Shown piece after piece: positions 1,019-49,725 of a DNA stretch of 50,782 bases. The notes under the pieces are model-generated. The model saw nothing but the letters and a program-made list of their open reading frames with translations, was not told the origin of the DNA and did not search any database. The DNA is from Paracoccaceae bacterium (lineage in GTDB: Bacteria > Pseudomonadota > Alphaproteobacteria > Rhodobacterales > Rhodobacteraceae): assembly GCA_024304875.1 (NCBI GenBank), contig JAMWZF010000001.1:1-50782 (forward strand), written 5' to 3'. The position numbers were made by a program, and so were the translations under genes. Within the stretch, counting starts at the first letter, position 1. Each line of letters begins with the position of its first letter.

Positions 1019-1086
1019 AGACGTTCTCTGGCTGCCGTGTCGGTCCCGCGATACCGGTCCGCGAAAGGCTATTGATCCGGTCTTTT

Positions 1087-14294: not shown

Positions 14295-14368
14295 CTGCGA
14301 AACACCTTAACTTTATATTATTTGCACAAGATTCGAGTCAGAAGAATCCGCCCTGTCAAATCCCAGTC

Positions 14369-30058: not shown

Positions 30059-30158
30059 TGTGGCGGGCTTGTAAACAACACCGCCGGCGCCGGGCACACG
30101 TCATGCGGGAATTCAGGCAAATCAGGCGTTTTTATGGCGCGAGCAAGGCTTGTCCAAG

Positions 30159-30256: not shown

Positions 30257-30997
30257 ATGACAGTACTAAAAGCATTGGTCGTGGCGTCCGCTTCGATTTT
30301 CGCGGCCTCCACCGCCTCGGCGGCAACCATCGATTTGTTCGATGATTTCCAAAAGGTCGAAGACGATTCGAACGGGGCTGTTCAGGGTTCGGAGGTTGCG
30401 GCGCCGGTCATCGGCGGTTTCCGCGATCTGTGGGTTGAGACATCGCCCGAAATTCCTGGCCTGTCGACGTCGCTGACTGTGGCCGGTGGGTTCTTGTCAT
30501 TCAGCAACGATACTGGCCAGCAAGGTATCGGCCAGGTTGCCTATGATGGTAACGATGGCGCTCCTACGGGTCTGAACAGCATCGATACTGATGGTCTCGG
30601 GATCGCAGGGGTGATCGGGAGCGGTCTCGACCTGACCTTCGGTCTCACCAATCCGGCGTTCTTCTTCGAGGTTCTCGAGGCGGACGGCGACTTCGTGTTC
30701 AGCGCGACAGTTTATGACATGGCCGGAAACGTCCATACCTATGTCGAGAACATTTTCGACGGCGCTTTCAGCCCGTTCCTGTCCTTCAGTGAATTCACCA
30801 GCGAGGGTGTGGACATGACGGACGTTGGCGCTGTCATCTTCCAGGTCGACTCGGTTTCGACCGGCATCTCGATCGATGGCGCCCTTGGCTCCATCACGGT
30901 TGTTCCGCTGCCTGCCTCCGCCCTGCTTCTGCTGGGTGGCCTGGGTGGTCTCTTCGGGGCCTCGACCCTCGTCGGCCGTCGGCGCCGCGACGCCTGA
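30257..30997 (+). CDS. Secreted VPLPA-CTERM protein (exosortase XrtD cargo)
   Basis: ATG at 30257 with AAGGGG SD. Signal peptide MTVLKALVVASASIFAASTASAA. Acidic Gly/Asp-rich body. C-terminus VPLPASALLLLGGLGGLFGASTLVGRRRRDA = motif + TM helix + Arg cluster (nt 30899..30994). Confidence 0.9.
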   Translation: MTVLKALVVASASIFAASTASAATIDLFDDFQKVEDDSNGAVQGSEVAAPVIGGFRDLWVETSPEIPGLSTSLTVAGGFLSFSNDTGQQGIGQVAYDGNDGAPTGLNSIDTDGLGIAGVIGSGLDLTFGLTNPAFFFEVLEADGDFVFSATVYDMAGNVHTYVENIFDGAFSPFLSFSEFTSEGVDMTDVGAVIFQVDSVSTGISIDGALGSITVVPLPASALLLLGGLGGLFGASTLVGRRRRDA

Positions 30998-32354: not shown

Positions 32355-33956
32355 ATGACAACGACGGATCAGTTCGCCAATCGATCTGCGCTTGGCTGGA
32401 TGAACTGGGGGCTGTTCTGGCTTCTGGTCGCCACCGTCGCGGCGGCCCTGTTCTTCCGGGACGGTTTCGAGGTGCTCCTCGACGCCTGGAGCGAGCCCGA
32501 ATACAGCCACGGTCCCCTGATCCCGGTGCTGTCGGCCCTGATGTTCCTGCGGGACCTCAAGCAGTACCCGGTCCAGCCCGGCCCCAAGCGGCACCGCTGG
32601 CCCGGCGTGCTGGTCGTCCTGCTGTCGATCGCGGTGGCCGTGCTCGGGACCCTGCTCCACGCCGATTCCTTCCTGGCCTACGCGATGATCGTCTGGGTCG
32701 GCGGGGTGCTTCTGATCAGCTTCGGCTGGGACACCGGAAAGCACCTCTGGCCGGCCGTCCTTCACCTCGTCTTCATGCTGCCGCTGCCCGGCATGATCTA
32801 TTACCAGGTGTCGACCTTCCTGCAGCTGGTGTCCTCGGAACTCGGGGTCTGGTTCCTCCAGCTCGCCAGCGTGCCGGTCTACCTCGAAGGCAACATCATC
32901 GATCTGGGGGTCCTGAAACTGCATGTGGCCGAGGCCTGTTCCGGCCTGCGCTACATGTTCCCGATCATGAGCTTCTCCTACATCTTCGCCTTCCTCTACC
33001 AGGGGCCGACCTGGCACAAGGTCGTGCTTTTGCTGGCGGCCGCTCCGATCGCGATCTTCATGAACTCGGTCCGGATCGCGATCGCCGGCATCCTCGTGCA
33101 GCAGTTCGGCATCGAATGGCTCGAAGGCTTCACCCATTTCTTCGAAGGCTGGGTGATCTTCATGATCAGCATCTTCCTCCTGATCGCCCTGGCCTGGATC
33201 CTGCTCAAGCTGAATCCGCGCAAGATGTCGCTGGCCGAGGCGCTCGACCTCGAGACCGACCAGATCGTGCCGCAGATCAAGCGGCTGCAGTTCGTCTATC
33301 CCTCCCCGGCCCTGATCACCGCCGCGGCGCTCATGGTCACGGCGGTCACCGTCGCCCCGCTGATCCCGGAGCGGGTCGCCACCGTGCCGGACCGGGACAG
33401 CTTCGCCCTCTTCCCGCGCGAGATCGGCGCATGGCGCCAGTACGGCACCGAGCAGCGGTTCTCTCCGGAGATCGAGGAGAGCCTCTCGGCGGACGACTAC
33501 CACGCGGTGCAGTTCGCCCGGGCGCCGGGCGAGCCCTCGCTGGACTTCTTCTCCGCCTGGTACACCGACCTGTCCGAGGACGGCGTGCAGCACACGCCCG
33601 AGATCTGCCTGCCCGGGGCGGGATGGGAGATCGCCCAGGTGGAGCGCATCGACCTCAGCGGAGAGCTGGGGCTGGAGGATCCCTACCGGGTCAACCGCGT
33701 CATCCTGCAGAAGGGCCAGGACCGGATGCTGGTTTATTACTGGTTCACCCACATGGGCCGCGCGATGCCCTCCAACACCGAGGCCAAGTTCAGCGTCATG
33801 ACTCGGGGGGCCTTCAACGACCGGCTGGACGGCGCGATCATCCGGCTCATCGTGCCGATCAGCGAGTCGCATACCGAAGCGGATGCCGCCGCGCAGATGA
33901 TCGACTTCCTCAAGGCGGCGGGCCCCCAGCTGCCACGGTTCATCCCGGGCGCCTGA
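32355..33956 (+). CDS. xrtD: Exosortase (XrtD-type, VPLPA-CTERM-specific) fused to an EpsI-family domain
   Basis: 533-aa ORF, polytopic N-half with the exosortase catalytic signatures EACSGLRY (Cys codon 32937..32939), NSVRIA and FTHFFEGW. C-half has the EpsI-like HTPEICLPGAGW. Subtype assigned from the VPLPA cargo 1.4 kb upstream. Confidence 0.85.
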   Translation: MTTTDQFANRSALGWMNWGLFWLLVATVAAALFFRDGFEVLLDAWSEPEYSHGPLIPVLSALMFLRDLKQYPVQPGPKRHRWPGVLVVLLSIAVAVLGTLLHADSFLAYAMIVWVGGVLLISFGWDTGKHLWPAVLHLVFMLPLPGMIYYQVSTFLQLVSSELGVWFLQLASVPVYLEGNIIDLGVLKLHVAEACSGLRYMFPIMSFSYIFAFLYQGPTWHKVVLLLAAAPIAIFMNSVRIAIAGILVQQFGIEWLEGFTHFFEGWVIFMISIFLLIALAWILLKLNPRKMSLAEALDLETDQIVPQIKRLQFVYPSPALITAAALMVTAVTVAPLIPERVATVPDRDSFALFPREIGAWRQYGTEQRFSPEIEESLSADDYHAVQFARAPGEPSLDFFSAWYTDLSEDGVQHTPEICLPGAGWEIAQVERIDLSGELGLEDPYRVNRVILQKGQDRMLVYYWFTHMGRAMPSNTEAKFSVMTRGAFNDRLDGAIIRLIVPISESHTEADAAAQMIDFLKAAGPQLPRFIPGA

Positions 33957-35637: not shown

Positions 35638-38148
35638 TCAGTCCTCGCCGGCGGTCTCTTCTACAGTGTCTTCCGTCGGCTCTTCCGCAGTCTCTTCCGC
35701 GGCCTCGGCCGCTTCGGCCTCCTGCAGGCTCTGCACCAGGCTGCGCGCCTCCTCGATCTGGGGCCGCGTGTCCGCCGGCCCGGCGATGTCGATGGCCCGG
35801 CGGAACTGCTCCAGCGCCTCCGCGCTTTGCTCCGTGGCCAGGTAGGCCTGGCCGAGGTGGTATTGCACCATGGGATCGTTCGGCAGGCCCTCGGCGGCGG
35901 CCTCGAGATAGGGCAGGGCGGCGGCGCTGTCGCCCCGGCGGTGCAGAAGCCAGCCGTAGGTGTCCTGCAGGGGCGGCGCCGAGGCGTCGCGCAGGCGGCG
36001 GGCGATCGTCCAGGCCCGGTCGAGGCTCTCCTCGTCGTCGCGATAGGTCGTCAGCAGGCTCGCCAGGTTGTTGGCCACGACGAGAGAGCTGGAATCCTGC
36101 GCATAGAGCCGCTCGTAGATCTCGATGGCGGCGTCGATCTCTCCGTCCTGCTCGAGAAACGAGGCCTGCGCCCAGAGCAGGTTCGCCGCATCGGGGGTCT
36201 GGTCCAGACCCTCTTCGATGGTGGCCTGCGCGGTCTCGCGGTCGCCCAGGCGCTGGTGGAGCCGGGACAGTTCGATCCACAGGTCGGGCCGGGCCGGGGT
36301 CGCCTCGAGTATGGCTTCGTAGGTGGCGATGGCGCCCTCCAGATCGTCATTGGCTGCCTGGGCCACCGCCAGAAGGACGTCGAGCGAGGCGTCGTCCGGG
36401 TAGTCTTCCTGCAGTTGCCGCGCCGCGGCCAGGGCACTTTGGGTATCGCCGGTGCCCAGCTGGGCGCGGATCAGGGTGATGCGCGTGGCCAGGGTGGCAT
36501 CGGCGGAATTCGACAGCGTCTCGAGAAAGGCCATGGCCTCTTCCGTGCCGCGCTGGCGGTTCAGCCGCTCCGCCTCGATCGCATTGGCCGCCTGCAGGGC
36601 GGCTTCGTTCCCGAGGCGCCGCAGCGCGTCGGCCACGGCCTGGGCCCGGCCGAAATCCTCCATCGCCAGGTAGAGGTCTCCCAGGGTGGTCAGCAGGTCG
36701 GGGTTGGCCGGGGCCAGCCGCAGCGCGTCGAGCAGGATGTCCTCGGCCGGCAGGTAGCGCTCTTCGCCGATCAGCACGCTGGCCAGGCGCAGGGTCTCGG
36801 CCGGGGCGTTGCCCGAGGCCTCGACCGCCCGGGCCAGGAAGTCCCGGGCCAGTTCGGACTGGCCGGCCCGCACATAGGCATTGGCCATGAGGGTCATCGC
36901 CTCGGCATCCGCAGGCGCCTGGTCGAGGGCCACCCGCAGGGCGCTGATGGCGGCGTCGGTGTCGTCGGCCTGGATCTGCCAGGCGGCCTGCATCTTGAGG
37001 GCCCCGGCATCCGTCTCGTCCTCGGCCAGAACCTCTTCCACCCGGGCCCGGGCGCCGACCTCGTTGCCGGTGGCCAGCAGCATCCGGGCCAGGGCGACCT
37101 TGGCCCGGCGGGTCTGCTCGGAGGGCTCTGCCCCGGCCAGCAGGCTTTCCATCTTCGCGATGGCCTCGTCCTGCCGGCCTTCGGTGAAGTCGAGTCCGGC
37201 GTCGATGATCCGGAACGGCATCGGATCGGGCTGCTCGGCGATCGCCGCCTCGAGCTCGGCGCGGGCGACGTCCGCGCCGCGCAGTTCGACGAGAAACCGG
37301 ATCAGGTCCAGCCGGGGCCCCGGGTTGTCCGGTTCGGCCGCCGCGACCAGCTCGCGCAGGAAGGCCTCGGCCCCGTCGAGGTCGTCCTGCGACAGGTAGA
37401 ACCGGATCAGGGTGGCCTTGTGGGCGTCGTCCTCGGGGAAGAGCTCGACCAGCTCGCGCAGTTGCGCCTCCACCGCGTCCATGTCGCCGAGCTGCGCCAG
37501 GATCTGCAGCCGGTCCTGGTAATGGCGGCGGTTGGTCGGGTCGTCCTCGATCAGCCAGTCGATCTCGGCCAGGGCGCGGGTGAAGTCCTGCTCGCGCATG
37601 GCATGATCGACGAGGATGCTCCGCAAAAGCGCATTGTCCGGCTGGTCGGCGAGCATTTCGTCGGCCTGGCGGCCGAGCTCGCGCATGGCCGCGGCATCCT
37701 GGGCTTCGGCGGCGGCGCGATAGTCGCGCACCAGGGTGATCGCCTCGACCCTGGGGTCCTCCGGGGCCAGCTCCACCAGGCGCAGCCCGTGGCGCTCGAC
37801 CTCCTCCCAGTTGCTCCCGAAGAAAGCCATCTCCGACAGGAGGATCCGGGTCTCGATGTCGTCCGGGTCCTGCTCCGCCACCCGCAGGTACTGATTGTAG
37901 GCCCCCTGGACGTTGCCGCGCTCCATCTGAAGCTCGGCCATCTTGAGCCGCGCGTCGATGTGGGTCTCGTTGAGCTGGAAGACGTTGCGCAGCTCCACCA
38001 TGCCCCGATCGATGTCGCCCTCGGCAATGAGGGTCAGGGCATTCTGGTAGTGCCCCTCGGCGCGGTCCTCCGCGGATCTGCAGCCGCTCAGCGCCAGGGC
38101 GGCGCAGAGGGCGAAGATGGCGGCAAGGGGGGTACGCAGAACGGTCAC
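35638..38148 (-). CDS. prsT: PEP-CTERM/exosortase-system TPR-repeat lipoprotein (PrsT-like)
   Basis: 836-aa ORF with lipobox ALALSGC and TPR-like repeats throughout (A..Y..AL...P....A...L). Acidic C-terminal tail. Confidence 0.8.
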   Translation of the reverse strand: MTVLRTPLAAIFALCAALALSGCRSAEDRAEGHYQNALTLIAEGDIDRGMVELRNVFQLNETHIDARLKMAELQMERGNVQGAYNQYLRVAEQDPDDIETRILLSEMAFFGSNWEEVERHGLRLVELAPEDPRVEAITLVRDYRAAAEAQDAAAMRELGRQADEMLADQPDNALLRSILVDHAMREQDFTRALAEIDWLIEDDPTNRRHYQDRLQILAQLGDMDAVEAQLRELVELFPEDDAHKATLIRFYLSQDDLDGAEAFLRELVAAAEPDNPGPRLDLIRFLVELRGADVARAELEAAIAEQPDPMPFRIIDAGLDFTEGRQDEAIAKMESLLAGAEPSEQTRRAKVALARMLLATGNEVGARARVEEVLAEDETDAGALKMQAAWQIQADDTDAAISALRVALDQAPADAEAMTLMANAYVRAGQSELARDFLARAVEASGNAPAETLRLASVLIGEERYLPAEDILLDALRLAPANPDLLTTLGDLYLAMEDFGRAQAVADALRRLGNEAALQAANAIEAERLNRQRGTEEAMAFLETLSNSADATLATRITLIRAQLGTGDTQSALAAARQLQEDYPDDASLDVLLAVAQAANDDLEGAIATYEAILEATPARPDLWIELSRLHQRLGDRETAQATIEEGLDQTPDAANLLWAQASFLEQDGEIDAAIEIYERLYAQDSSSLVVANNLASLLTTYRDDEESLDRAWTIARRLRDASAPPLQDTYGWLLHRRGDSAAALPYLEAAAEGLPNDPMVQYHLGQAYLATEQSAEALEQFRRAIDIAGPADTRPQIEEARSLVQSLQEAEAAEAAEETAEEPTEDTVEETAGED

Positions 38149-38292: not shown

Positions 38293-38943
38293 TCAGTCCC
38301 CGCCCGTCAGGCAGATCGCGGGTTCGACCCCCGGCCAGAACCCGTGGGGCAGAAGCGTGATGGCCCAGGTGGCGGCGTATTCGGCGAAGTCGAGAAGGCT
38401 GAGCTGACGGATGTCGAAGGCCTCCCCGGGATCCGAGACGACCCGGACGACACCCACCGGCCACAGCTCGTTGCGCAGGGCGACGGAAGCGCGCGCCATG
38501 TGGCTGCGCGAGGTGATCAGGGCGACGGCCCGCCCGGCATCGGGCTGCCGGTCCAGCCAGCATCCCGTCTCCCAGGCGTTCTCGATCGTCGTATGGGCGT
38601 CCGGCGCCAGGACGATCCGGCCGGTGTCGAGCCACTGGACCTGCTCGGGAGGCAGCGAGAACTGGGTGGCGAACCGCTCCGGGTCCAGGCCCGCGTCCCC
38701 GTTCACGCCGGTGATGAAGAGACGGTCGACGCGGCCCTCGGACAGCAGATCCAGCCCGGCCCGGATCCGGTCGAAGTCCCCGGTGAAGACCACGGCGGTA
38801 CCGGGCAGGTCGCCGGTCCGCTCGGGGGTGGTGGCGCGGTTCACGAAATCCAGCAGCAGGGCCCCCAGGACCACGGCGACCGCCCCGATGAGGGCAAGGA
38901 TCCTGACGATCGTCCGGACCAGGCCGGCGAAGAGCGAGCGCAT
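38293..38943 (-). CDS. DUF218 (YdcF/ElyC family) protein, second copy
   Basis: 216-aa ORF with N-terminal TM helix, AVVFTGD, HTTIENA, LITSRSHMARA. Confidence 0.75.
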   Translation of the reverse strand: MRSLFAGLVRTIVRILALIGAVAVVLGALLLDFVNRATTPERTGDLPGTAVVFTGDFDRIRAGLDLLSEGRVDRLFITGVNGDAGLDPERFATQFSLPPEQVQWLDTGRIVLAPDAHTTIENAWETGCWLDRQPDAGRAVALITSRSHMARASVALRNELWPVGVVRVVSDPGEAFDIRQLSLLDFAEYAATWAITLLPHGFWPGVEPAICLTGGD

Positions 38944-39363
38944 GGGCGCCTCTTTGCTGTGATGCTGCGGGGGGCCTTATCATGCTTCGCCCGGCGCCTG
39001 AACCGCAAGAGTGCCCGCCGGCGCAGAGGATGCCGGACCCCTGTCTTCGGGACCGGCAGGGCAGCGCCGGGGCCGGATACTGGGGAAATCCGCTCATATG
39101 GGGCCGAAAACGGCTTCGCGGTTTCTGAAAGGTCGAAGTCGGTGTACCCCGGGTACAAGAACGACGCTCGTCCTCGAGGCGGGCCGACACCGTGGGCAGT
39201 GCATTCAGTGGAAATATCGAACCGCCGCGTTCCGATTAGTTCATATTCTTCGATTATTGCGAGGATACCTTCGCAATAGTTTGGCCCGGGATATGCCCTA
39301 AATCGAACAACATTTCCCAGAAAGAATGGACGAGAGGCAAACAACAAAAGTGGAGTGGTAGCG

Positions 39364-42033
39364 ATGCGAGGTCTGAACCCTGCTCGAGCTCGACTTCTCG
39401 AAACCTTCGGCCTGGATGCCGAACTGAACTGGGGCCACGGGTGCCGGCTGGCGGACACCGAGGGCCGCGAGTATCTCGACTTCCTGTCGCAGTACGGCGC
39501 CCTGCCGTTCGGACACAATCCGCCGCAGATCTGGGCGGCGATGCGCGGCGAACAGAACCTGTCGCGCCCCTCCATGGTCCAGCCTCTGCGCGCCACCGGA
39601 GCCGAGAAGCTGGCCGGGACGCTGGCCGACATCACCCCCCATGACCTGAGCGTCGTGATGTTCGCGAACTCCGGCGCCGAAGCCGTCGAGGCCGCGATCA
39701 AGCTGGCCCGGGCCCGTTCGGGCCGCGATGTCATCCTGTCGACCCGCAACGGATTCCACGGCAAGACGATGGGCGCCCTCTCGGCCACCGGAAAGCCCAT
39801 GTATCAGAGGGATTTCGGCGGCCCGGCCCGGAACTTCCATTATACCGCCTTCGGCGATCTGGATGCTCTCGAGGCGGAGCTGAAGGCCAATGCCGGCAAG
39901 ATTGCGGCTTTCATCGTCGAACCCATCCAGGGCGAGGGCGGCGTGGTCTGCCCGCCGGATGCGGACTATCTCGACGGGGTCATCGCGCTCTGCCGTCAGT
40001 ATGGCGTGTTCAGCATCTTCGACGAGATCCAGACCGGGCTCGGCCGCACCGGCAAGCTGTTCGCCTGCTCGGACTGCGCCGCGGCGCCCGACATGCTGCT
40101 TCTGGGCAAGGCGCTGGGGGGCGGCCTGATGCCGATCTCGGCCGTGGTCATCCGGCCCGAGGCCTGGGACGACCGGTTCGGCATGCTGCACAGCTCGACC
40201 TTCGCCAACAACAACCTTGCCTGCGCCGCCGCCAGCGCCTCGATCGAGCTTCTGACCAAGGACGACGGGGCGCTCGTCAAGGAGGTGGCCAGGAACGGCC
40301 GGTACTTCGAGGACCAGCTCAATGCGCTGAGCGCCCGGTATCCCGAGGTGCTGATCGGCCGCCGGGGCCGCGGCTACATGCAGGGCCTGCAGTTCGCCGC
40401 CATCCACGAGCGCGGCGACTCCGCCTCGATGGCCTATTGCGGCCTCAACGGCGGCTTCATCGGGCTGCTGAGTTCCTATATCTTCAACGTCCAGCGCGTG
40501 CTCACCGCGCCGGTCTTCAACAATGCCCAGGTGATGCGGCTGCAACCGCCCCTGGTCGCGGGCCGGGCCGAGATCGACGAATGCGTCGTGGCCCTGTCGC
40601 AGACCTGCGAGATCCTCGACAAGGGCGACTACCGCGCGCTCATGCAGCACCTCGTGACCCCCAAGCGCCGGGCACAGCTGGCCGAGACGCCGATCGTGCA
40701 GCCGCAGCAGGGGCCGGCCCGGGACGTGCCCGAGGCGACGCCGGGGCGCTTCTGCTTCCTCATCCACTACACCGAGGAAGAGGACGTGCTGCGCTCCGAC
40801 CCGTCCTTCGCCCGGTTCACCGAGACGGAGCGGGACACCTGGATGGAATGGGTCAAGCGCGTCGGCCCCGGGTTCGCCTGGCCGGTCACCGGCGGCACTT
40901 CGCGGACCGGGGCGCGGGCCGAAGGCATGATCATGTCGGTGCCCTTCCTGCCCAAGGACATGGTCGGCAAGGGCCGCAAGACGGCCCGCGAGACGATCCA
41001 GTCCGCCGCCGACATGGCCACCGATTTTGGCGCCAGCCGGCTCGGCCTCGGGGCTTTCACCTCCATCGTGACCAACGGCGGGGCCGCGGTGGCGGGCCGC
41101 GGCGTGCCGGTCACCAGCGGCAATACCCTGACGACCGTCTCGGCGGTCAAGGCGCTGCTGCGCGCCGCCCGGCGGGTCGAGATCGACCCGGCCCAGGCCA
41201 ATGTCGTCGTCATCGGGGCCACCGGCGCCATCGGCCGCCTGGCCAGTCTGATGATGGCCCGCTGGGCCGGTCAGCTGACCCTGGTCGGCAATGCCCAGAA
41301 CTGCCATGCCCAGAGCCTGCTCGACCGGGTGGCCAACGAGGTGGTCGACAGCCTCGTCACCAACGGTCCGGACCCCCGGGCGGGCGACCTGAGCGCGACG
41401 GTCCAGTACATGCTGGCAGGTCGTGACGCACCGCAGGAGAACCGGCTGAAGGCGCTGACGCGGGCCTGCCGGGATGCCGATCTGCCCCTGCCGATCGCGA
41501 CCACCACCGATCTCGACCGGGCCCTGGCCGACGCCGATCTCGTCATCGTGGCGACCAACGCCGATGTGGCGCTTGTCGATCCGGCGCAGATGCGCCCCGG
41601 AACGGTCGTCTGCGACGTGGCGCGGCCGCCCAACGTGGCGCCGGCGGATCTGTCGGACAGCGGTGTCCTCGTCTTCGACGGCGGCCTGGTCAGACCCCCG
41701 TTCCCGGTCAACCTGGGACCGTTCCAGACCCTGCCCGAAGATCTCTGCTGGGGCTGCATGGGGGAAACCATGCTCCTGGCCCTCGAGGGAGAGACGAAGG
41801 ACTACAGTCTCGGCCGCGATCTCAGCCTGGAGGATGCCGACCGCGTGGCGGAGATGGCCCAGCGTCACGGCTTCGAACCGGCAGAGCCGCAGTGGCACGG
41901 CCAGTTCCTGCAGGAGGCCGATTTCGACCGCGTCGCCGCGGCCCGCCGCGCGCGGGAGATGGGCCCGGGCATCGGCCTGGTCATGGACCCCGCATCGGTT
42001 TCGGCCCCGTCGCGCGTCTGGGCCGCCGAATAG
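39364..42033 (+). CDS. Fusion protein: class-III (omega) aminotransferase domain plus acyl-ACP-reductase-like NAD(P)-binding domain
   Basis: ATG 39364 with GGAG 9 nt upstream. N-half: NSGAEAVEAAIKLAR, EPIQGEGG, DEIQTGLGRTG, LLLGKALGGG (PLP Lys). From residue ~462 (nt 40747): GLGAFTSIV, TSGNTLT, VVVIGATGAIG, GCMGETMLLALEG (Cys codon 41755..41757), HGFEP. As I remember cyanobacterial acyl-ACP reductase, it has ALGGFTSII, TTGNTHT, VVGATGDIG, ACFAEAMLLEFEG and HGFQP at the matching positions. Confidence 0.8.
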   Translation: MRGLNPARARLLETFGLDAELNWGHGCRLADTEGREYLDFLSQYGALPFGHNPPQIWAAMRGEQNLSRPSMVQPLRATGAEKLAGTLADITPHDLSVVMFANSGAEAVEAAIKLARARSGRDVILSTRNGFHGKTMGALSATGKPMYQRDFGGPARNFHYTAFGDLDALEAELKANAGKIAAFIVEPIQGEGGVVCPPDADYLDGVIALCRQYGVFSIFDEIQTGLGRTGKLFACSDCAAAPDMLLLGKALGGGLMPISAVVIRPEAWDDRFGMLHSSTFANNNLACAAASASIELLTKDDGALVKEVARNGRYFEDQLNALSARYPEVLIGRRGRGYMQGLQFAAIHERGDSASMAYCGLNGGFIGLLSSYIFNVQRVLTAPVFNNAQVMRLQPPLVAGRAEIDECVVALSQTCEILDKGDYRALMQHLVTPKRRAQLAETPIVQPQQGPARDVPEATPGRFCFLIHYTEEEDVLRSDPSFARFTETERDTWMEWVKRVGPGFAWPVTGGTSRTGARAEGMIMSVPFLPKDMVGKGRKTARETIQSAADMATDFGASRLGLGAFTSIVTNGGAAVAGRGVPVTSGNTLTTVSAVKALLRAARRVEIDPAQANVVVIGATGAIGRLASLMMARWAGQLTLVGNAQNCHAQSLLDRVANEVVDSLVTNGPDPRAGDLSATVQYMLAGRDAPQENRLKALTRACRDADLPLPIATTTDLDRALADADLVIVATNADVALVDPAQMRPGTVVCDVARPPNVAPADLSDSGVLVFDGGLVRPPFPVNLGPFQTLPEDLCWGCMGETMLLALEGETKDYSLGRDLSLEDADRVAEMAQRHGFEPAEPQWHGQFLQEADFDRVAAARRAREMGPGIGLVMDPASVSAPSRVWAAE

Positions 42034-42293
42034 GCGGCCGGCGCGGGTCAGCGCCTTATCCAGCACAGGGGCAGGGGGCCTGCGGGGCCCCCATGCGCCG
42101 CTTCTGCCGCCCCTGTCGCGGGCGGCATCTGCGGCGGTGACGTGGTTCCTCTATACAACAAGCTGGAAAATGCCGCATCGGACAGATTGCCGAACCCGGG
42201 TCGATCAGGGTTAACTGCCGCCAAACAGCAGCTTGCAGTTCGTTCCGGCGGCTGTTGGCTCAAAGAAAATCTGGCCGCGCGGGACGCCCGAAC

Positions 42294-43436
42294 ATGACAA
42301 AATCAACTGCCCGTGTGACGAGACTCGTCACCTTCGCTCTCCTGCTGGGGACGCTTGCCGCCTGCGGACTGCCGCGGTCCGGCCCCACCCGGGGCGAGCT
42401 TCTCAGCGCCGCGACCGAAGGCGGGGTCACCACCTTCGTCATCGCGGTGGACGAACGGATCACCCAGGTGATCCCCTCGCCGCCGCAGACCTCGTTTCCC
42501 GCCAGCTTCGTCGCCGCCTCGCCCCTGACGCCCGGTGTCATCCGCCCCGGGGACGTGCTGAGCTTCACCGTCTTCGAAAACGTCGACGACGGCCTGTTCT
42601 CCCAAGGCGCCGGGGCGTCCTCGATCGGAGCGCTTCAGGTGGATGAGGACGGTTTCGTCTTCGTGCCCTATGTCGGGCGCATTCTCGCCGCCGGAAACAC
42701 GCCCGAGCGCATGCGGCAGATCATCACCGAGCGGCTCGAGGAACAGACCCCGCGGCCCCAGGTGATCGTGCAGCGTACGGCGGGCGACGGCGGCACCGTC
42801 TCCATCGTCGGAAACGGGGTCGCCGGCCAGGGCTCCTTCCCCCTCCAGCGGTCCAACCTGCGGCTCATGGGTCTTCTGGCCTCGGTCGGCGGCGTCACCG
42901 CGGACCCCGAACTGGTGAGCGTCATCGTCATCCGCGACGGCCACCGGGCGGAGATGCTCTACGAGGACATCTACGACACCCCCAGGTACGACATCGCGCT
43001 GCGCCCCGGGGACAGGATCATCGTGGAGAGCGACGATTCCAGCTTTATCTCCCTCGGCGAGACCGGCAGCCAGGGGATCATTCCCTTCCCCAGAAAGAAC
43101 ACCTCGGCGCTTCAGGCGATCGCCACGGTGGGCGGGCTGAGCGGCGGGACGGCCGACCCCACGGGCGTGTTCATCATCCGGGATGAAACGCCCCAGGTCG
43201 CCAATGCCGTCCTCGGCCGGACCGATTTCTCCACCCCGCAGCGGATGATCTACGTCATCAACCTGACCGAACCCAACGGGCTGTTCCTGGCGCGAAACTT
43301 CAATATCCGGGACGGGGACACGCTCTACGTGACCGAAGCGCCGTTCACCCAGTGGTCGAGGGTGCTCAACGCGATCATCGGCACGGCCGGCCGGGTCCAG
43401 ACGATCGAGACCATCGCGACGAACGCCACGAACTGA
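42294..43436 (+). CDS. Polysaccharide export outer-membrane lipoprotein (Wza/EpsE-like, Poly_export + SLBB)
   Basis: ATG 42294, lipobox LLGTLAACG. PGDVLSFTVFE..LQVDEDGFVFVPYVGRILAAGNTPERMRQIITERL is the Poly_export motif region. Confidence 0.85.
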   Translation: MTKSTARVTRLVTFALLLGTLAACGLPRSGPTRGELLSAATEGGVTTFVIAVDERITQVIPSPPQTSFPASFVAASPLTPGVIRPGDVLSFTVFENVDDGLFSQGAGASSIGALQVDEDGFVFVPYVGRILAAGNTPERMRQIITERLEEQTPRPQVIVQRTAGDGGTVSIVGNGVAGQGSFPLQRSNLRLMGLLASVGGVTADPELVSVIVIRDGHRAEMLYEDIYDTPRYDIALRPGDRIIVESDDSSFISLGETGSQGIIPFPRKNTSALQAIATVGGLSGGTADPTGVFIIRDETPQVANAVLGRTDFSTPQRMIYVINLTEPNGLFLARNFNIRDGDTLYVTEAPFTQWSRVLNAIIGTAGRVQTIETIATNATN

Positions 43437-43690
43437 GGGCCGCGGGACGGGGAGGGGCCGGCCCGGTCCCTCCGGGCGGCTCGAGGTGCTGCCGTATAAT
43501 CAATGTTATGTGAACTGTTCGCCCATCCGGGGCGCCGCGGGGGATGCATCCGTCGACAGTCAAGGCCGCAGGCCGGCTTTGTTCCCTGCGCGGGACCTGC
43601 GAAATCGCATGCTTTCACTATGACCTCTAACCATATATCCCCTGCGGTGACGGATGCGCCGCGGCCCCGCTTCTGGTAACAGTTCCTCGT

Positions 43691-44572
43691 ATGACAGCAG
43701 CCCTTTACAACGATCATTTCGGATTTCGAGAACGCCCGTTTTCGCTGTCCCCGGACCCGGATTTCCTGTTCTGGTCCAAGGCCCACGCCCGGGCCCTGTC
43801 GGTGCTGGAATACGGGGTGATGACCCGGGCTCCGATCACGGTGGTCTCGGGCGAGGTCGGAACCGGCAAGACGACCCTGATCCAGGCCCTGCTGCGGACG
43901 GTGGAGGAAGACGTCACCGTCGGACTGATCTCGAACGCCCGCGGCGACCGGGGAGATCTGCTGCGCTGGGTGCTGAGCGCCTTCGACGTCCCGGTGTCCC
44001 AGGATGCCGACTACGTGACCCTCTTCCAGAGCTTCCAGGACTTCGTGCTCGGCGAATACGCCGCCGGCCGGACCGTCGTGCTGATCGTCGACGAAGCGCA
44101 GAACCTCGGCGCCGAGACCCTGGAGGAGCTGCGCCTGCTGACGAACATCAACTCCGGCAAGGACGAGCTGCTGCAGATCATCATGGTCGGCCAGCCCGAG
44201 CTGCGCGACATCATCTGCCGGCCGGAACTGCGCCAATTCGCGCAGCGGGTGACCGCCACCTATCACCTCGATCCGATGTCCTCGGACACCACGGTCGCCT
44301 ACGTGATTCACCGGCTCAAGCATGCCGGCGGCACCGGAGAGGAGTTTTCCCTCGATGCCATCCACTTCGTCCACGGCCAGTCGGCCGGCATTCCCCGCAT
44401 GGTCAACAAGATCTGCGATCTCGCCCTCGTCTATGCCTCCAGTGCCGGCGACGCCCAGGTGAGCGTGGAGACCATCGAGGAGATGATCTCCGACGGGCTG
44501 ATCCTGAATCCGCCCCAGCCCCTCTTCCTGCGGGGGCCCGGGATCGACGCGCTCGGGAAGGCGGCGGAATGA
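43691..44572 (+). CDS. ExeA-like AAA ATPase (exosortase-locus secretion ATPase type)
   Basis: 293-aa ORF: FGFRERPFSLSPDPDFLFWS, Walker A GEVGTGKTT, Walker B VLIVDEAQNL, MVGQPEL. Confidence 0.85.
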   Translation: MTAALYNDHFGFRERPFSLSPDPDFLFWSKAHARALSVLEYGVMTRAPITVVSGEVGTGKTTLIQALLRTVEEDVTVGLISNARGDRGDLLRWVLSAFDVPVSQDADYVTLFQSFQDFVLGEYAAGRTVVLIVDEAQNLGAETLEELRLLTNINSGKDELLQIIMVGQPELRDIICRPELRQFAQRVTATYHLDPMSSDTTVAYVIHRLKHAGGTGEEFSLDAIHFVHGQSAGIPRMVNKICDLALVYASSAGDAQVSVETIEEMISDGLILNPPQPLFLRGPGIDALGKAAE

Positions 44573-46137
44573 GCTTCGACTTCGGATTCTACTGGGCCGT
44601 GCTGCTGCGCCGCCTGCCGGTCATGGCGCTGTTCGCGCTGCTGTTTTCGGGCATGGGGGTCTTTGCCGCCCTGCAACTGCCCGATGTCTATTCGACCTCC
44701 GCACGCCTTCTGGTCGAAGAGCCGCTGATCCCGGACAACATGGTGGCCTCCACGGTGCAGTCGAGCGCCATCGAGCAGCTTGCCGTCATCGAGCAGCGGC
44801 TGCTGACCCGGGCGAACCTGATCGACATCGCCAACAGGTACGACGTCTTCGAGGACATCCGCCAGATGGCGCCCGACACCGTCGTGGCGCGGATGCGCGC
44901 CGCCACCGACATCAGCCGCCCCCGCGCCGGGCGCAGCGGGGATCGCGCCACGCTGATGACCATCGGCTTCGAATCCCATTCGCCGCAGATCGCGGCGGAC
45001 GTGGTCAACGAATACGTGACCCTGGTCCTCCAGGAGAACGCCCGGTTCCGGGCCTCCCGCGCCGAGAACACGCTGGAATTCTTCGAACAGGAGGTCGAGC
45101 GCCTGAACGCCGAACTCGACCAGCAAAGCGCCGAGATCGCGCAGTTCAAGGCCGAGAACGCCAATGCCCTGCCCGAGGACCAGGCCTTCCGGATCGGGCG
45201 GCAGACCCTGCTGCAGGAGCGGCTGGCCCAGTTCGAGCGCGATCTGAGTGCCCTCGCGCAGAGACGGCAATCCGTCGTGGACGCCTACGAGACGGCCCAG
45301 GCGCAGCAGACGCCCACCCCCACGGCCCAGCAGCGCAGCTCCTACGAGGAGGAGCTGATCATCGCCGAGGCCGATCTCGAGAATCTGCGGAGCGAATACT
45401 CGGACGACAATCCGCGCATCTTCCGGCTGGAGGAACGGATCGACCGCCTCAGGACGATCATCGCGGCCCAGAACGAGGCCAATGGCGTGGCGGTCGGCGA
45501 AGAGGAACGGGCCTCGGCGCAGGAGGCTCTTCTCGAGGCCACCCTGGCCGACATCGACAGCGAGATCGAGACCCTGCAGACCGCGCGGGACACCACCTCG
45601 GCCGATCTGGACAGACTGCTCGAGAACATCTCGCGAAGCGCCGCGAACGCGCTTCGGATCACCGAACTCGAGCGCGACTACACCAACATGCAGGCGCGCT
45701 ACAATTCCGCGGTCTCCAACCTGAACACCGCCCGGCTGAGCGAGAGGCTGGAAGCGACCTCGCAGGGGCAACGGATTTCCGTGATAGAGAACGCCAGCGT
45801 GCCCCGCGTGCCGAGCGGACCGAACCGGACGGCGATCGCCGCCGGGGCCGTCGCCCTGGGGGTCGGTCTGGCCGTCGGCTATTTCATCCTGCTCGAGGTT
45901 CTGAACCGCTACATTCGCCGCCCCGCAGAGCTCAAGGAGCGCTGCGCGACCACCCCGATCGCCACGATCCCCTACATGGAAAGCTGGGGCGAACGCCTCA
46001 TCCGGCGGACCGGCCTGGTGGCCGCAATGCTTGCCGTGCTGATCGCCGTGCCGGCGGGGCTGTGGTATGTCGACACCTATTATCTGCCTCTCGAACTGAT
46101 CGTTCAGAGAGGCCTGGACCGTCTCGGTCTCGGCTAG
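44569..46137 (+). CDS. Polysaccharide chain-length determinant (Wzz/GumC/EpsF-like, PCP family)
   Basis: ATG 44569 overlaps the upstream stop (ATGA). N-terminal TM + Wzz motif (YSTSARLLVE), long coiled-coil region, second TM near the C-terminus. Confidence 0.85.
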   Translation: MSFDFGFYWAVLLRRLPVMALFALLFSGMGVFAALQLPDVYSTSARLLVEEPLIPDNMVASTVQSSAIEQLAVIEQRLLTRANLIDIANRYDVFEDIRQMAPDTVVARMRAATDISRPRAGRSGDRATLMTIGFESHSPQIAADVVNEYVTLVLQENARFRASRAENTLEFFEQEVERLNAELDQQSAEIAQFKAENANALPEDQAFRIGRQTLLQERLAQFERDLSALAQRRQSVVDAYETAQAQQTPTPTAQQRSSYEEELIIAEADLENLRSEYSDDNPRIFRLEERIDRLRTIIAAQNEANGVAVGEEERASAQEALLEATLADIDSEIETLQTARDTTSADLDRLLENISRSAANALRITELERDYTNMQARYNSAVSNLNTARLSERLEATSQGQRISVIENASVPRVPSGPNRTAIAAGAVALGVGLAVGYFILLEVLNRYIRRPAELKERCATTPIATIPYMESWGERLIRRTGLVAAMLAVLIAVPAGLWYVDTYYLPLELIVQRGLDRLGLG

Positions 46138-46162
46138 AGACCGGGCGAGCATTGGGAATCGA

Positions 46163-46969
46163 ATGGAGAAGCTGAGAGCCGCGATCGACAAGGCCCGCCA
46201 GACGCGGAGCGATCATGTCCCCGCCAGGGCCCCGCGCCCGGAGCCCGCCCCGGCGGCGCCCTCGAACCTTGCCCGGTGGGAGGCCCTGGCCCCGCTCGAG
46301 ATCGAGGAAAGGCAGCTCGTCCGGCACCGGGTCGTGACGCGCCTGGCGAATGCGGCGGCCACCCCCTTCGACATCCTGCGGACCAAGACGCTCCTGCAGA
46401 TGCGCCAGAACGGCTGGAAACGGCTGGCGATCACCTCGCCCATGCCCCGGTCGGGCAAGACCACCATCGCCTGCAACCTCGCCCTCGGCCTCGGCCGGCA
46501 GGGCGATCTGCAGTCGATCCTCCTCGACCTCGACCTGCGCGATCCCTCGGCCCACAAGTTCTTCAAGACCCGCCCGCCCCACGGCATCAGCGAGGTTCTC
46601 ACCGGCGCCGTGCCCTTCGACAAGCAGGCCCTGCGGTACGGCAGCAATGTCGCCATCTCGATGGCGCAGAAGGCCGAAGCCGACCCGACCCAGATCCTTT
46701 TGTCCGAAGAGGCCACGGCCGCCATCGACAAGATCCAGGCCGATTTCGAACCCGACATCATGATCTTCGACCTGCCGTCCGTCCTGGTGAACGACGACAC
46801 CCGGGCCTTCCTGAAGAACGCCGATTGCGCCCTGATCGTGGCCCGGGCCGAAAGGACCCAGTACGACCAGTTCGAGGCCTGTCAGGCCGAGGTCGCGCAG
46901 CATACCAACATCATCGGCACGGTCCTGAACGCCTACCGGCACGACAAGCGATCGACGGGAAAGGCCTAG
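46163..46969 (+). CDS. BY-kinase-like P-loop ATPase (CpsD/EpsG-type partner of the chain-length determinant)
   Basis: 268-aa ORF: Walker A ITSPMPRSGKTT, Walker A' ILLDLDLRDP, Walker B IMIFDLPS. No C-terminal tyrosine cluster. Confidence 0.75.
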   Translation: MEKLRAAIDKARQTRSDHVPARAPRPEPAPAAPSNLARWEALAPLEIEERQLVRHRVVTRLANAAATPFDILRTKTLLQMRQNGWKRLAITSPMPRSGKTTIACNLALGLGRQGDLQSILLDLDLRDPSAHKFFKTRPPHGISEVLTGAVPFDKQALRYGSNVAISMAQKAEADPTQILLSEEATAAIDKIQADFEPDIMIFDLPSVLVNDDTRAFLKNADCALIVARAERTQYDQFEACQAEVAQHTNIIGTVLNAYRHDKRSTGKA

Positions 46970-46982
46970 GGCCGGCAGGGGC

Positions 46983-48089
46983 ATGTGGCCTTACTGGATC
47001 CTCTTCCTCATTCCGGCCATGGTCGCGATCTCGGCGCAGCCCGCCCGGACCCTGCGCGCCGACGGATCCCGGCGGATCACGCTGACCGGGTCCTGGCTGC
47101 TGGTCCTGATCGTCTTCATCCTCTTCATCGGACTAAGGGACCGGGTCGGCGGGGACTGGTTCAACTATTTCAACTACCTGTTCCGCGCCGAGACCCAGAC
47201 CGTGCAGGAGGCCCTGCAGCGCGCCGATCCCGCCTATGAACTCCTGAACATCCTCAGCCTCGAGCTGGGCCTCGGGGTCGTCGGGGTCAACCTGTTCTGC
47301 GGCACCGTCTTCTCCCTCGGGTTGATCATCTATGCCCGGTCCATGCCGCGCCCCTGGCTCGCCCTCGCCGTGGCCATCCCCTACCTGACCGTCGTGGTCT
47401 CCATGGGCTATGCCCGCCAGGGAGTTGCATTGGGCTTTGCAATGATCGGGCTCGTCGCCCTTGGCCGCGACCGCTTCCTCTGGTTCGCCTTCTGGGTGGT
47501 CCTGGCCGCCAGCTTCCACCGCTCGGCGGTCTTCCTGATGAGCATCGCCCTGCTCAACCTCGATTTCCGGAAATTCATAAACCTGCCGATCCTGCTGCTG
47601 ATCGGCTTCGGGATGTATGTCGCCTTCCTCGAGGACAGCAGCGAGGTCCTGATCGAGGTATACATCGAATCCGAGATGCAGTCGGACGGCGCGTTCATCC
47701 GCCTGCTGATGAACGCGGTGCCGGCGCTTCTCTTCCTGCGCTACCGAAAGAGGTTCTCGATCAGCCGGGGCGAGTACAAGACCTACTCGACCATGTCCTA
47801 CCTGTCCCTGCTGTTCTTCGTCGCCCTGGTCGCCGGGCTGCTGCCCTCGACGGCCCTCGACCGCATGGCGCTCTACATCCTGCCGATCCAGGTCTTCGTC
47901 TTCTCCAGCCTGCCGGACAACATCGGGAAGACGGAGTCCGGCAGGAAAGGGATGATCTTCCTGATCCTGGCGTATTACACCCTGGTGCTGCTGGTCTGGC
48001 TCAACTTCGCAAACTTCTCGCACTGGTGGCTTCCCTACCGGATGTTCCCGCCCCTCGACATCTACGAGGCCTACGACATGAGCCGGTGA
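46983..48089 (+). CDS. EpsG-family membrane protein (putative Wzy-type polysaccharide polymerase)
   Basis: 368-aa polytopic ORF: GDWFNYFNYLF and MGYARQGVALGF are typical of the EpsG family. Confidence 0.7.
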   Translation: MWPYWILFLIPAMVAISAQPARTLRADGSRRITLTGSWLLVLIVFILFIGLRDRVGGDWFNYFNYLFRAETQTVQEALQRADPAYELLNILSLELGLGVVGVNLFCGTVFSLGLIIYARSMPRPWLALAVAIPYLTVVVSMGYARQGVALGFAMIGLVALGRDRFLWFAFWVVLAASFHRSAVFLMSIALLNLDFRKFINLPILLLIGFGMYVAFLEDSSEVLIEVYIESEMQSDGAFIRLLMNAVPALLFLRYRKRFSISRGEYKTYSTMSYLSLLFFVALVAGLLPSTALDRMALYILPIQVFVFSSLPDNIGKTESGRKGMIFLILAYYTLVLLVWLNFANFSHWWLPYRMFPPLDIYEAYDMSR

Positions 48090-48200
48090 GTGGCAGGGCC
48101 CGGCAACCGGACCGGCCGGGCCGCCGCTCGACGGTGGCGGGCCGAGGGGCTAGACTCATGATCGCCGACCTCGACGCATCAACCGAAGAGCCGCTGGAAA

Positions 48201-48830
48201 TTGACAGAGATACAGGAACGCGGCGACGCCAGGCCGCCCAAGGTTTTCGGAATCGGGTTCCACAAGACGGGAACCTCCACCCTGACAGAGATCCTGAGGG
48301 CCTTCGGATACAGGGTCACCGGCCCCAACTGGACGACCGAGGAGGATATCGCCGACACCTACCTCGAAAGATGCCGGGCGCTCTCGCGGACCTACGACGG
48401 CTTCCAGGACAATCCCTGGCCGCTGGTCTATCGCGAGATGGACCGGATGTGGCCGGGGTCGAAGTTTATCCTGACGACGCGCGACGAAGACAAATGGATC
48501 CAGTCCCAGATCAAGCATTTCGGGCGCCGCGAAACACCGATGAGACGGCTGATCTATGGCGAGAAATACGGCCGTCCCGCCGGGAACGCGGACCATTACG
48601 TTTCGGTTTTCCGCGCGCATAACGCGGCGGTCCGGGACTATTTCAGGGGCCGCGAGAACGACCTCCTCGAGATCGACCTCACGAAGACTCCCCAATGGCA
48701 GCCGATCTGCGACTTCCTCGGCGTCGATGTTCCCGACCTGCCTTTTCCTCACGCGAACTCCAGGGAGAGCCGCATGAGGAACGACCCGCTCTGGAAGCGG
48801 ATGGTGAAGAAGGTTCTTCTCAGGATATGA
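48201..48830 (+). CDS. Sulfotransferase family protein
   Basis: KVFGIGFHKTGTSTL PAPS-binding loop near the N-terminus. The only in-frame start after the upstream stop at 48159..48161 is TTG 48201. Confidence 0.65.
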   Translation: MTEIQERGDARPPKVFGIGFHKTGTSTLTEILRAFGYRVTGPNWTTEEDIADTYLERCRALSRTYDGFQDNPWPLVYREMDRMWPGSKFILTTRDEDKWIQSQIKHFGRRETPMRRLIYGEKYGRPAGNADHYVSVFRAHNAAVRDYFRGRENDLLEIDLTKTPQWQPICDFLGVDVPDLPFPHANSRESRMRNDPLWKRMVKKVLLRI

Positions 48831-48891
48831 GACCGGATCATCAGCCCCGGGCAGATACCGGACACCACAGCCCGAACCGATCGGCGGCCGC

Positions 48892-49725
48892 ATGAAGGTG
48901 CGGGACAGGTATTCCGTCTCGCAGAAGGCCACGATCCCCGCCTGGCTGCGTCATCGGTCCATCATGCTCGCCCAGGCCGTGCCGGACCTCTTCGCCAGGC
49001 CGCACCGGTCCGATGTCGACCACGTCCTGATATGTGGCTGCGGCCACAGCGGAACCACTCTCCTGGCGGCCAAGCTGGGCCAGCATTCCAGGGTCCTGCT
49101 GATCGAGCGCGAGACCGGGACCTTCGAGGGCACGGTCAGCGCCCATTGCGCGCGGCGCATCCTGACCGAATGGGACTATTTTGCACGAAAGCTGGGCAAG
49201 GCGGCCGTCGTCGAGAAGACGCCGAAGCACGTCCAGTTCATCGGCAAGATCAGGCGGATCCTGCCGGAGTCGAAACTGGTCTTCGTCTGCCGGAACCCCC
49301 TCGACAACATCGCCTCGCTCTACCTGAGGTTCAAGGATCTCGACGCCTGCATCGGTCGCTGGAATGCAGACAACCGGGCCGTGCTGGCGAACCGGGAGCG
49401 TCCCGGGACCCATCTGGTCCGCTACGAGGATCTCGTCTCCGCGCCCCGGGAGCAGATCTCCGGCCTGCTCGGCAAGCTCGGCTTCGAATGGGAACCGGAG
49501 ATACTCGATCCGGGTCGATCGACCTATGCCACGGCCGGGACGAAGGGGACGATGGCCGTCCGCGCCCGGCAGGTCCAGCGCGAGATCACGCGGAACACCG
49601 GCGGCTGGCGAAAGGTCTTCTCGCAGGCAGAGGCGGAGACGGTCATTGGCAGGACAAGGGCCGTGGCCGGTGCGCTCGGGTATCCGGCCGACCTGGCGGA
49701 CTACGACCGGTACGACCCCGACTGA
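48892..49725 (+). CDS. Sulfotransferase family protein
   Basis: 277-aa ORF: ICGCGHSGTTLL (5'-PSB loop), VFVCRNPLDNIAS (3'-PB region), RYEDLV. Confidence 0.75.
   Translation: MKVRDRYSVSQKATIPAWLRHRSIMLAQAVPDLFARPHRSDVDHVLICGCGHSGTTLLAAKLGQHSRVLLIERETGTFEGTVSAHCARRILTEWDYFARKLGKAAVVEKTPKHVQFIGKIRRILPESKLVFVCRNPLDNIASLYLRFKDLDACIGRWNADNRAVLANRERPGTHLVRYEDLVSAPREQISGLLGKLGFEWEPEILDPGRSTYATAGTKGTMAVRARQVQREITRNTGGWRKVFSQAEAETVIGRTRAVAGALGYPADLADYDRYDPD

Follow-up and report, generated by a model that had tools for sequence, protein, structure and literature searches.

Two described enzymes combine a pyridoxal phosphate (PLP)-dependent transaminase and a thioester reductase in one polypeptide. PtTamH, from the tambjamine YP1 pathway of Pseudoalteromonas tunicata, consists of an N-terminal PLP-dependent transaminase, a linker of ~50 aa and a C-terminal thioester reductase that is homologous to acyl-acyl carrier protein (ACP) reductase (AAR) and carries a GxxGxxG motif and Cys887; with the adenylation-ACP protein TamA as its partner, it makes fatty amines from fatty acids via TamA-bound acyl-ACP (PMC9594044). 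PigE, from the MAP branch of prodigiosin synthesis in Serratia, has the two domains of TamH in reversed order, and feeding and cell-lysate data support thioester reduction followed by transamination (PMC8341465). Here we describe a gene for a transaminase–thioester reductase (TA-TR) fusion protein on a stretch of 50,782 nucleotides from a Paracoccaceae bacterium (Rhodobacterales; GenBank assembly GCA_024304875.1, contig JAMWZF010000001.1), hereafter the window, where it lies in a surface-matrix locus with the exosortase XrtD and a protein bearing a VPLPA-CTERM sorting signal (Table 1). To judge from its sequence, the fusion protein belongs to the known TamH/PigE kind of enzyme, for which the thioester-to-amine route is already established. 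The initial annotation of this DNA knew of no characterised example of such a fusion and was mistaken on this point, as both PtTamH and PigE precede it. The enzyme type itself therefore adds little, TamH and PigE being known and dozens of clusters at 50% identity sharing the architecture across phyla. However, the association of a TA-TR enzyme with the XrtD/VPLPA-CTERM system of marine Rhodobacterales, outside pigment clusters, is previously undescribed: in the literature we found no link of exosortases to such a fusion, and VPLPA-CTERM was mentioned in an unrelated context only.

The window protein and PtTamH have identical architecture and domain order, with transaminase, linker and thioester reductase carried on a single polypeptide. 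The TamH-type protein P0207 is collinear with the fusion protein over 865 residues at 38% identity, including an insertion in the Rossmann subdomain. The Pro/Gln-rich linker is in frame and is present in all full-length homologues. The open reading frame (ORF) is uninterrupted on the forward strand from either a GTG at 39355 or the ATG at 39364 to position 42033; because the GGAG motif lies 8 nt before the ATG and homologues begin there in the alignment, the ATG is the likely start codon. Both catalytic domains are intact, hold every family-invariant residue and are under purifying conservation. From these features and the homology to PtTamH and PigE, both of which have experimental support, we consider the protein probably to be a bifunctional enzyme of the TamH/PigE type that converts a thioester to a primary amine as part of an accessory module of the XrtD/VPLPA-CTERM system. 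The AAR-like domain would load Cys798 with an acyl group that arrives as a phosphopantetheine thioester (acyl-ACP or acyl-CoA), and NAD(P)H bound at G618-x-x-G621-x-x-G624 would reduce the Cys798-bound thioester to an aldehyde, which would then be handed to the N-terminal class-III PLP domain (Lys249) and transaminated to the primary amine. A one-protein route from thioester via aldehyde to amine had been proposed in the initial annotation and is well supported by this homology.

In a phmmer comparison of the C-terminal 459 aa with all PDB sequences, the N-terminal reductase half of PigE (4PPM) matched at E=5.8e-37 and the cyanobacterial AAR of Synechococcus elongatus (6JZQ) at E=3.6e-22 with the Cys aligned; 6JZU gave a similar value (~4e-22). 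AAR and the C-terminal reductase domain are ~24% identical. Kinship with AAR had initially been suggested from five motif pairs, all of which were found aligned by phmmer (GLGAFTSIV/ALGGFTSII, TSGNTLT/TTGNTHT, VIGATGAIG/VGATGDIG, GCMGETMLLALEG/ACFAEAMLLEFEG and HGFEP/HGFQP); among the matches of the C-terminal domain to PDB sequences, WGCMGETMLLALEG stands aligned with FACFAEAMLLEFEG. The codon assigned at that time to the acyl-accepting Cys proved exact on translation, and Cys798 is invariant in both of our alignments, A1 and A2, the latter comprising 49 fusion proteins. Further residues invariant in A2 are D220, E221, G618, G621, G624, E801 and T802. An AlphaFold2 model of residues 453-889, based on an 80-sequence alignment, reached a mean predicted local distance difference test (pLDDT) score of 93.3. 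When this model was searched against the PDB with Foldseek, AAR structures occupied ranks 1-7 (E=2.6e-23; template modelling (TM) score 0.81, AAR-normalised), followed by the TAD domains of carmabin biosynthesis (TM 0.67-0.75, 16-18% identity). The model also contains an insertion of ~50 aa in the Rossmann subdomain (~residues 634-716), predicted as well-defined helices, which AAR lacks and TamH-type proteins share.

Pfam searches of the reductase domain returned THF_DHG_CYH_C and Shikimate_DH, in each case over ~40-70 residues of the Rossmann core and with scores around the gathering threshold, and shikimate dehydrogenases reached merely TM 0.38-0.45 against the model. As these threshold matches are confined to the core and the fold search strongly favours AAR, the domain is not of the shikimate type, and an identity as shikimate or THF dehydrogenase was rejected. 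This also answers a caution in the initial annotation, which had named a better fit to a shikimate- or saccharopine-type dehydrogenase without the Cys as the outcome that would speak against an AAR-like domain; the fit is poorer, and Cys798 is present. On the C-terminal half, the best NCBIfam score was that of PigE (180 bits) and the next that of the AAR equivalog TIGR04058 (81 bits), both below the respective cut-offs.

Among the described enzymes, PigE is the nearest relative of solved structure for both halves of the window protein, with the Cys conserved (GCMAETI vs GCMGETM), and its NCBIfam family NF053554 is the best match of the whole fusion protein (534 bits in four stretches, short of the cut-off of 850). 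It differs in having the reductase at the N-terminus, and neither pigD nor pigB of the prodigiosin pathway occurs here. PtTamH, in turn, has its dedicated TamA partner in a bipyrrole pigment gene cluster, whereas the window is a plasmid devoted to XrtD and exopolysaccharide (EPS) functions with no ANL or ACP gene. AAR (6JZQ/6JZU, TIGR04058) shares the fold, the Cys and the nucleotide motif with the window domain, but is a stand-alone protein of ~340 aa whose aldehyde is handed to an aldehyde-deformylating oxygenase, while the window domain is fused to a transaminase and carries the ~50-aa insertion. No aldehyde-deformylating oxygenase was found in Pfam scans of the window genes. A further parallel, already remarked by the authors of the PigE study (PMC8341465), is the GluTR-GSAM pair of tetrapyrrole biosynthesis, in which an activated acyl group is reduced by a Cys-dependent NADPH enzyme and the resulting aldehyde goes to a class-III PLP enzyme. 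The Rossmann part of the reductase gives weak HemA matches (E=2e-4); however, this similarity is confined to the nucleotide-binding region, a tRNA-binding domain is missing, and by type the PLP domain belongs with YgjG and PigE and not with GSAM.

The N-terminal half is a class-III PLP aminotransferase with its PLP-binding Lys in LLLGKALGGG, as initially annotated: the Aminotran_3 match spans residues 24-413, and both DEIQTGLGRTG and LLLGKALGGG are found within it. Lys249 is at least 90% conserved in A2 and is kept in 21/21 aligned full-length homologues from related loci, a count from which the L025 row was left out as it is not the fusion ORF. The best PDB matches of this half are PigE (4PPM, E=4e-77) and 4UOX (E=8e-72), and the domain is nearest to the PigE and YgjG (putrescine) omega-transaminases. 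As YgjG, the closest relative after PigE, is a catabolic putrescine aminotransferase, the enzyme might instead operate in the catabolic direction, turning a primary amine (putrescine-like or fatty) into an aldehyde and further into acyl-CoA, with the AAR-like domain acting as an acylating aldehyde dehydrogenase. Amino-acid/polyamine-type permeases adjoin some distant fusions, which would suit this direction, and both acyl reduction and transamination are chemically reversible in principle. We nevertheless regard catabolism as rather improbable, given that the fusion gene heads a biosynthetic EPS export array within a surface-matrix locus, that Pfam scans of the plasmid yielded no amine-uptake or beta-oxidation genes, and that both experimentally studied fusions run biosynthetically (PMC9594044, PMC8341465).

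The distribution of homologues was examined in one genome per GTDB species. Full-length collinear homologues with 54-76% identity were found in at least 17 genomes of Rhodobacterales, among them members of Thalassococcus, Sulfitobacter, Marivita, Roseovarius, Shimia, Marinovum, Heliomarina and Phaeobacter, and homologues with 34-42% identity in Syntrophothermus, Dongiaceae, Ketobacter, Burkholderiales and Sulfurifustaceae. Across 21 genomic homologues, the motifs DEIQTG, GKALGGG, FxFxxH, GLGAFTS and T(S/T)GN are conserved, as are G(A/V)xG(A/S)(I/V)G, CDVARP, (G/A)C(M/L)xET and HGF. Searched exhaustively by phmmer with the reductase domain, a set of 1.84 billion representatives of clusters at 50% identity gave 2,562 matches at E<=1e-3. 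In the best 150 of these, 48 proteins were at least 800 aa long with the reductase domain at ~residues 455-890 or later, and the census of domain architectures called for by the initial annotation found Aminotran_3 together with the reductase domain in 48/48 of them. AMP-binding domains were present in 10 and PP-binding domains in 9 of the 48, so that some members bring acyl activation and the carrier along in the same polypeptide.

An assembly or frameshift error uniting two genes had initially been raised as a concern. Some metagenomic homologues are indeed split or truncated (P0014/L065, P0060), which demonstrates that such errors do occur in this GC-rich gene, although they give no direct support to an artefact here. 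Uninterrupted full-length ORFs of 873-901 aa cross the same junction in at least 17 Rhodobacterales genomes and in other phyla, the junction being conserved in more than 20 genomes overall, and finished plasmids annotate a single gene (901 aa on Haematobacter massiliensis pOT1-1, 862 aa on Rhodovulum sp. P5 pRGUI04). Together with the uniform architecture of the long proteins among the best 150 representatives, this leaves a negligible chance of an artefact: the fusion gene is authentic.

Several other relatives have a different makeup or setting. Larger proteins of 1,400-1,600 aa (P0151, P0162, P0171, P0190, P0201, P0206) combine the TA-TR core with AMP-binding and PP-binding domains. On Leisingera plasmids (L. 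thetidis pBMJM1_4, locus L063, 11959-16146), a gene of this extended kind for 1,395 aa adjoins genes for a second adenylating enzyme and an MMPL transporter, a neighbourhood that looks like an uncharacterised lipid-amine gene cluster. In two distant proteobacterial loci (L021 12717-14398, L023 12724-14457) a small ORF (117-131 aa) and a gene for an APC-family amino-acid/polyamine permease come after the fusion gene. The conservation of these three genes as a set suggests another function for that clade, in amine import or export. In general, the surroundings of fusions with 34-42% identity are heterogeneous (APC permease, PPDK-like enzyme, thioesterase, flavoproteins) and uninformative about the clade of the window protein.

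A tblastn survey of all window proteins against related loci placed XrtD, the PrsT-like TPR protein, the DUF218 protein, the rhomboid protease, the secreted 531-aa protein and the exporter in the company of the fusion gene. Its most persistent partner is an orthologue of the VPLPA-CTERM gene, which lies 128-753 bp away in the 15 loci that have a VPLPA-type neighbour ORF (L002, L004, L005, L008-L017, L061, L062) and does so in three arrangements, i.e., upstream on the same strand, convergent and divergent. In L014-L017, which form a clade with 54-57% identity, and on Haematobacter pOT1-1, the VPLPA-CTERM gene is the sole window gene kept within 10-12 kb. Close homologues of the fusion (53-55% identity, 96% coverage) occur on just three records of the plasmid collection, and all three strains also have XrtD (two complete assemblies and one other). 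XrtD itself is present on 24 Rhodobacterales plasmids of this collection, of which pRGUI04 of Rhodovulum sp. P5 is the only one to carry the fusion gene as well. The fusion would thus form an accessory module in some XrtD systems and not in all.

The VPLPA-CTERM protein belongs to a family of ~100 members, all of them Rhodobacterales-like, with the motifs IDDF, GGxRDL, FSN, YDG, GLGGxDLT and FFFEV and a Gly-rich transmembrane part in the sorting signal (LLLLGGLGGL). No Pfam or NCBIfam domain was found in it. The predicted structure (pLDDT 87) is a generic beta-sandwich and resembles carbohydrate-binding modules weakly (TM 0.3-0.45), so that no function can be assigned from the fold. The rhomboid gene stands back-to-back with the VPLPA-CTERM gene and is syntenic in at least eight related loci, and in at least seven related loci a relative of the secreted 531-aa protein (55-61% identity) neighbours either XrtD or the fusion gene. 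In Rhodovulum marinum (L066, 4502-5164) a VPLPA-CTERM relative without the fusion adjoins a FeeM-type N-acyl amino acid synthase, a lipid-amide enzyme.

A number of observations weigh against the assignment of the protein as a thioester-to-amine enzyme of the XrtD/VPLPA-CTERM system. Its scores remain below both equivalog cut-offs (534 vs 850 for PigE, 81 vs 449.7 for AAR), so that it is an orthologue of neither and their substrate specificity is not transferable. Free acyl-CoA is not accepted by PtTamH (PMC9594044), and no NAD(P)H turnover was detected with purified PigE (PMC8341465), which indicates that partner requirements can be strict. At the same time, neither the plasmid nor the related Rhodobacterales loci have a recognisable gene for an ACP or an AMP ligase, apart from one ORF in L009. 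As to the sorting system, VPLPA-CTERM relatives without a fusion neighbour exist in Palleronia, Rhodovulum marinum and one metagenome contig, and ~21 plasmids with XrtD do not themselves carry the fusion gene, so that the link runs in one direction and is not obligatory. Finally, the carmabin TAD domain, which has the AAR fold, has been proposed to amidate and not to reduce (bioRxiv 10.1101/2024.10.28.620694).

The last point leads to the possibility that only the aminotransferase is catalytically relevant and that the AAR-like domain is a module for TAD-like amidative release or for nucleotide binding or regulation. TADs, the second-best structural match, have the same Cys and bound NAD and are proposed to form amides (bioRxiv 10.1101/2024.10.28.620694), and the failure to detect thioester reduction in vitro with purified PigE, or with PtTamH and acyl-CoA, would be in keeping with such a role (PMC8341465, PMC9594044). 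However, the window domain is much nearer to the AAR/PigE reductases than to TADs in both sequence identity and fold, and the Cys, the GxxGxxG motif and the Glu and Thr that follow the Cys are invariant across the fusion family. Moreover, fusion to an omega-transaminase is chemically sensible only with an aldehyde, and the TamA-TamH cascade gave amines (PMC9594044). Such a different role of the domain thus appears quite unlikely, and reduction followed by transamination remains our preferred assignment.

On the supply of acyl groups to this putative thioester-to-amine enzyme, Pfam scans of all ~41 window genes detected no AMP-binding or PP-binding domains, and phmmer searches with E. coli AcpP or with ANL-ACP segments taken from the mega-fusions gave no match in the window. 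Among related loci, no ANL/ACP partner was found except in the Leisingera cluster and for an unrelated AMP-binding-like ORF ~5 kb off in L009. Because the plasmid has no dedicated adenylating enzyme or ACP, we tentatively suggest that the substrate is probably drawn from the general cellular pool of acyl-ACP or acyl-CoA. The window protein represents a distinct clade whose members have no fused or adjacent adenylation-ACP partner and may therefore take general acyl-ACP or acyl-CoA, which would make them attractive for fatty-amine biocatalysis. To judge by the genes around the fusion gene, the most likely destination of the amine is the cell-surface matrix, where it may decorate the polysaccharide or act as a lipid-like component.

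One conceivable use of an amine-bearing product, i.e., a fatty amine or an amine on a lipid or EPS, is as the acceptor or anchor for the VPLPA-CTERM protein cleaved by XrtD. Exosortase systems have been described as depending on an 'unknown periplasmic nucleophile' (Haft 2006, PMC1569441), and there are precedents in related processes: rhombosortase makes an ethanolamine-containing adduct (PMC6219818), archaeosortase substrates are lipid-anchored (PMC7157517) and type IX secretion involves the amine of a linking sugar (PMC7468200). Retention of the VPLPA-CTERM neighbour in 15 loci and three orientations, even where no other genes of the system are nearby, is consistent with this use. However, a general role as XrtD acceptor is weakened by the absence of the fusion gene from most XrtD plasmids, and we consider the acceptor function improbable. 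If true, it would reveal what this nucleophile is in one such system. A putative amine-forming enzyme that is conserved next to a sorting substrate offers a concrete, testable handle on exosortase anchoring chemistry.

Another fate of the amine was put forward in the initial annotation, which noted three ATP-grasp genes and uronic-acid enzymes on the plasmid and proposed amide linkage of the amine to the polymer. The gene content is as described: three ATP-grasp proteins (including a TupA-like one and one of the 'sugar-transfer associated' type), a UDP-sugar dehydrogenase and an epimerase are present, and the EPS export array starts with the fusion gene, so that ligation of the amine to EPS uronic-acid carboxylates could be envisaged. 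Co-conservation does not support it. ATP-grasp homologues lie within 10 kb of the fusion in only 2 of ~20 related loci (L005, L006), and in Haematobacter and L014-L017 neither EPS nor ATP-grasp genes are near the fusion, the VPLPA-CTERM gene alone being the conserved neighbour. Ligation by the ATP-grasp enzymes is accordingly unlikely. Overall, the domains proposed in the initial annotation were confirmed and its chemistry is well supported, whereas characterised precedents for the fusion do exist and the ATP-grasp fate of the amine finds no support in co-conservation.

Table 1 Features of the fusion gene and its surroundings in the window (positions are those of the 50,782-nt stretch).
Feature	Position	Strand	Evidence or remark
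TA-TR fusion gene: class-III aminotransferase + AAR-like thioester reductase	39364..42033	+	889 aa plus stop
Shine-Dalgarno GGAG	39352..39355	+	8 nt before ATG 39364; alternative GTG 39355 overlaps GGAG
Class-III PLP aminotransferase domain, residues 24-413	39433..40602	+	Pfam Aminotran_3 E=4e-84
PLP-binding Lys249 codon (in LLLGKALGGG)	40108..40110	+	translation
Inter-domain linker, Pro/Gln-rich, ~residues 432-461 (~30 aa)	40657..40746	+	translation
AAR-like thioester reductase domain, ~residues 462-845	40747..41898	+	phmmer vs 6JZQ/4PPM, AlphaFold2, Foldseek
Nucleotide-binding motif GATGAIG (G618, G621, G624)	41215..41235	+	aligned to AAR VGATGDIG; invariant in A2
Cys798 codon	41755..41757	+	aligned to acyl-accepting Cys294 of AAR and Cys296 of PigE
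Rhomboid intramembrane protease	29366..30097	-	Pfam Rhomboid E=6e-28; rhombosortase 33 bits, below cut-off
Secreted 246-aa VPLPA-CTERM protein	30257..30997	+	C-terminus SITVVPLPASALLLLGGLGGLFGASTLVGRRRRDA, textbook sorting signal
XrtD, VPLPA-CTERM-specific exosortase fused to EpsI domain	32355..33956	+	TIGR04152 603.6 bits (cut-off 400); Exosortase_EpsH + DUF3485
Secreted 531-aa protein, signal peptide	33991-35586	+	no Pfam/NCBIfam match
PrsT-like TPR lipoprotein of exosortase system	35638..38148	-	TIGR02917 E=2.4e-71, below cut-off; TPR families
DUF218 membrane protein	38293..38943	-	divergent from fusion gene, syntenic in related loci; Pfam
Co-directional EPS export/polymerisation genes after fusion gene	42255..49725	+	Pfam/NCBIfam scans
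Replication/partition module: ParB, ParA, RepA (RPA family)	25412-29295		
Two ATP-grasp genes (ATPgrasp_ST, TupA-like)	13251..15274	-	Pfam scans
Third ATP-grasp, fused to low-molecular-weight phosphotyrosine phosphatase, 563 aa	6023-7714	-	

The window represents a complete circular replicon of 50,727 bp. Closure is indicated by the identical 55-nt ends (nt 1-55 and 50728-50782), and a gene for an AT3-SGNH acyltransferase on the reverse strand (1114..1 joined to 50727..49733; 2109 nt, 703 codons) is in frame across the junction when the duplicated end is counted only once. The RepA protein is 75-78% identical to its counterparts on 63-69-kb plasmids of Roseobacter denitrificans and R. litoralis and on Rhodovulum pRGUI04, all of them XrtD carriers. 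Its identity to RepA of Phaeobacter 68-69-kb plasmids is ~71%; the RepA-I 'biofilm plasmids' fall in this size class (PMC5030684). Surface-polysaccharide cargo is a feature that the window plasmid has in common with the Roseobacter RepA-I/biofilm and XrtD plasmids. No near-identical annotated plasmid was found by megablast.

Nearly all of the cargo belongs to a surface-polysaccharide system. It comprises glycosyltransferases, sulfotransferases, acyltransferases, an asparagine synthase, the UDP-sugar dehydrogenase and epimerase, an ABC transporter and a priming sugar transferase, in addition to a Wza-like exporter, a PEP-CTERM-type ATPase, a chain-length determinant with a kinase-like partner, an EpsG-type polymerase and the three ATP-grasp proteins. 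The co-directional array behind the fusion gene encodes the Wza-like exporter, an XrtA-type ATPase, the chain-length determinant, a tyrosine-kinase-like P-loop protein, the EpsG-family polymerase and two sulfotransferases, and no terminator-like site was found on the forward strand between the two (42034-42254).

The ATP-grasp/phosphatase fusion gene adjoins DUF2334 and formyltransferase-like genes. The GC content of the region ~13200-21400, which holds the other two ATP-grasp genes, an ABC exporter, two AT3 acyltransferases and the UDP-sugar dehydrogenase, is lower than elsewhere on the plasmid (0.62-0.65 vs ~0.70), and the third-codon-position GC of the ATPgrasp_ST gene is just 0.61. This composition suggests that the region may be a separately acquired segment of the EPS locus.

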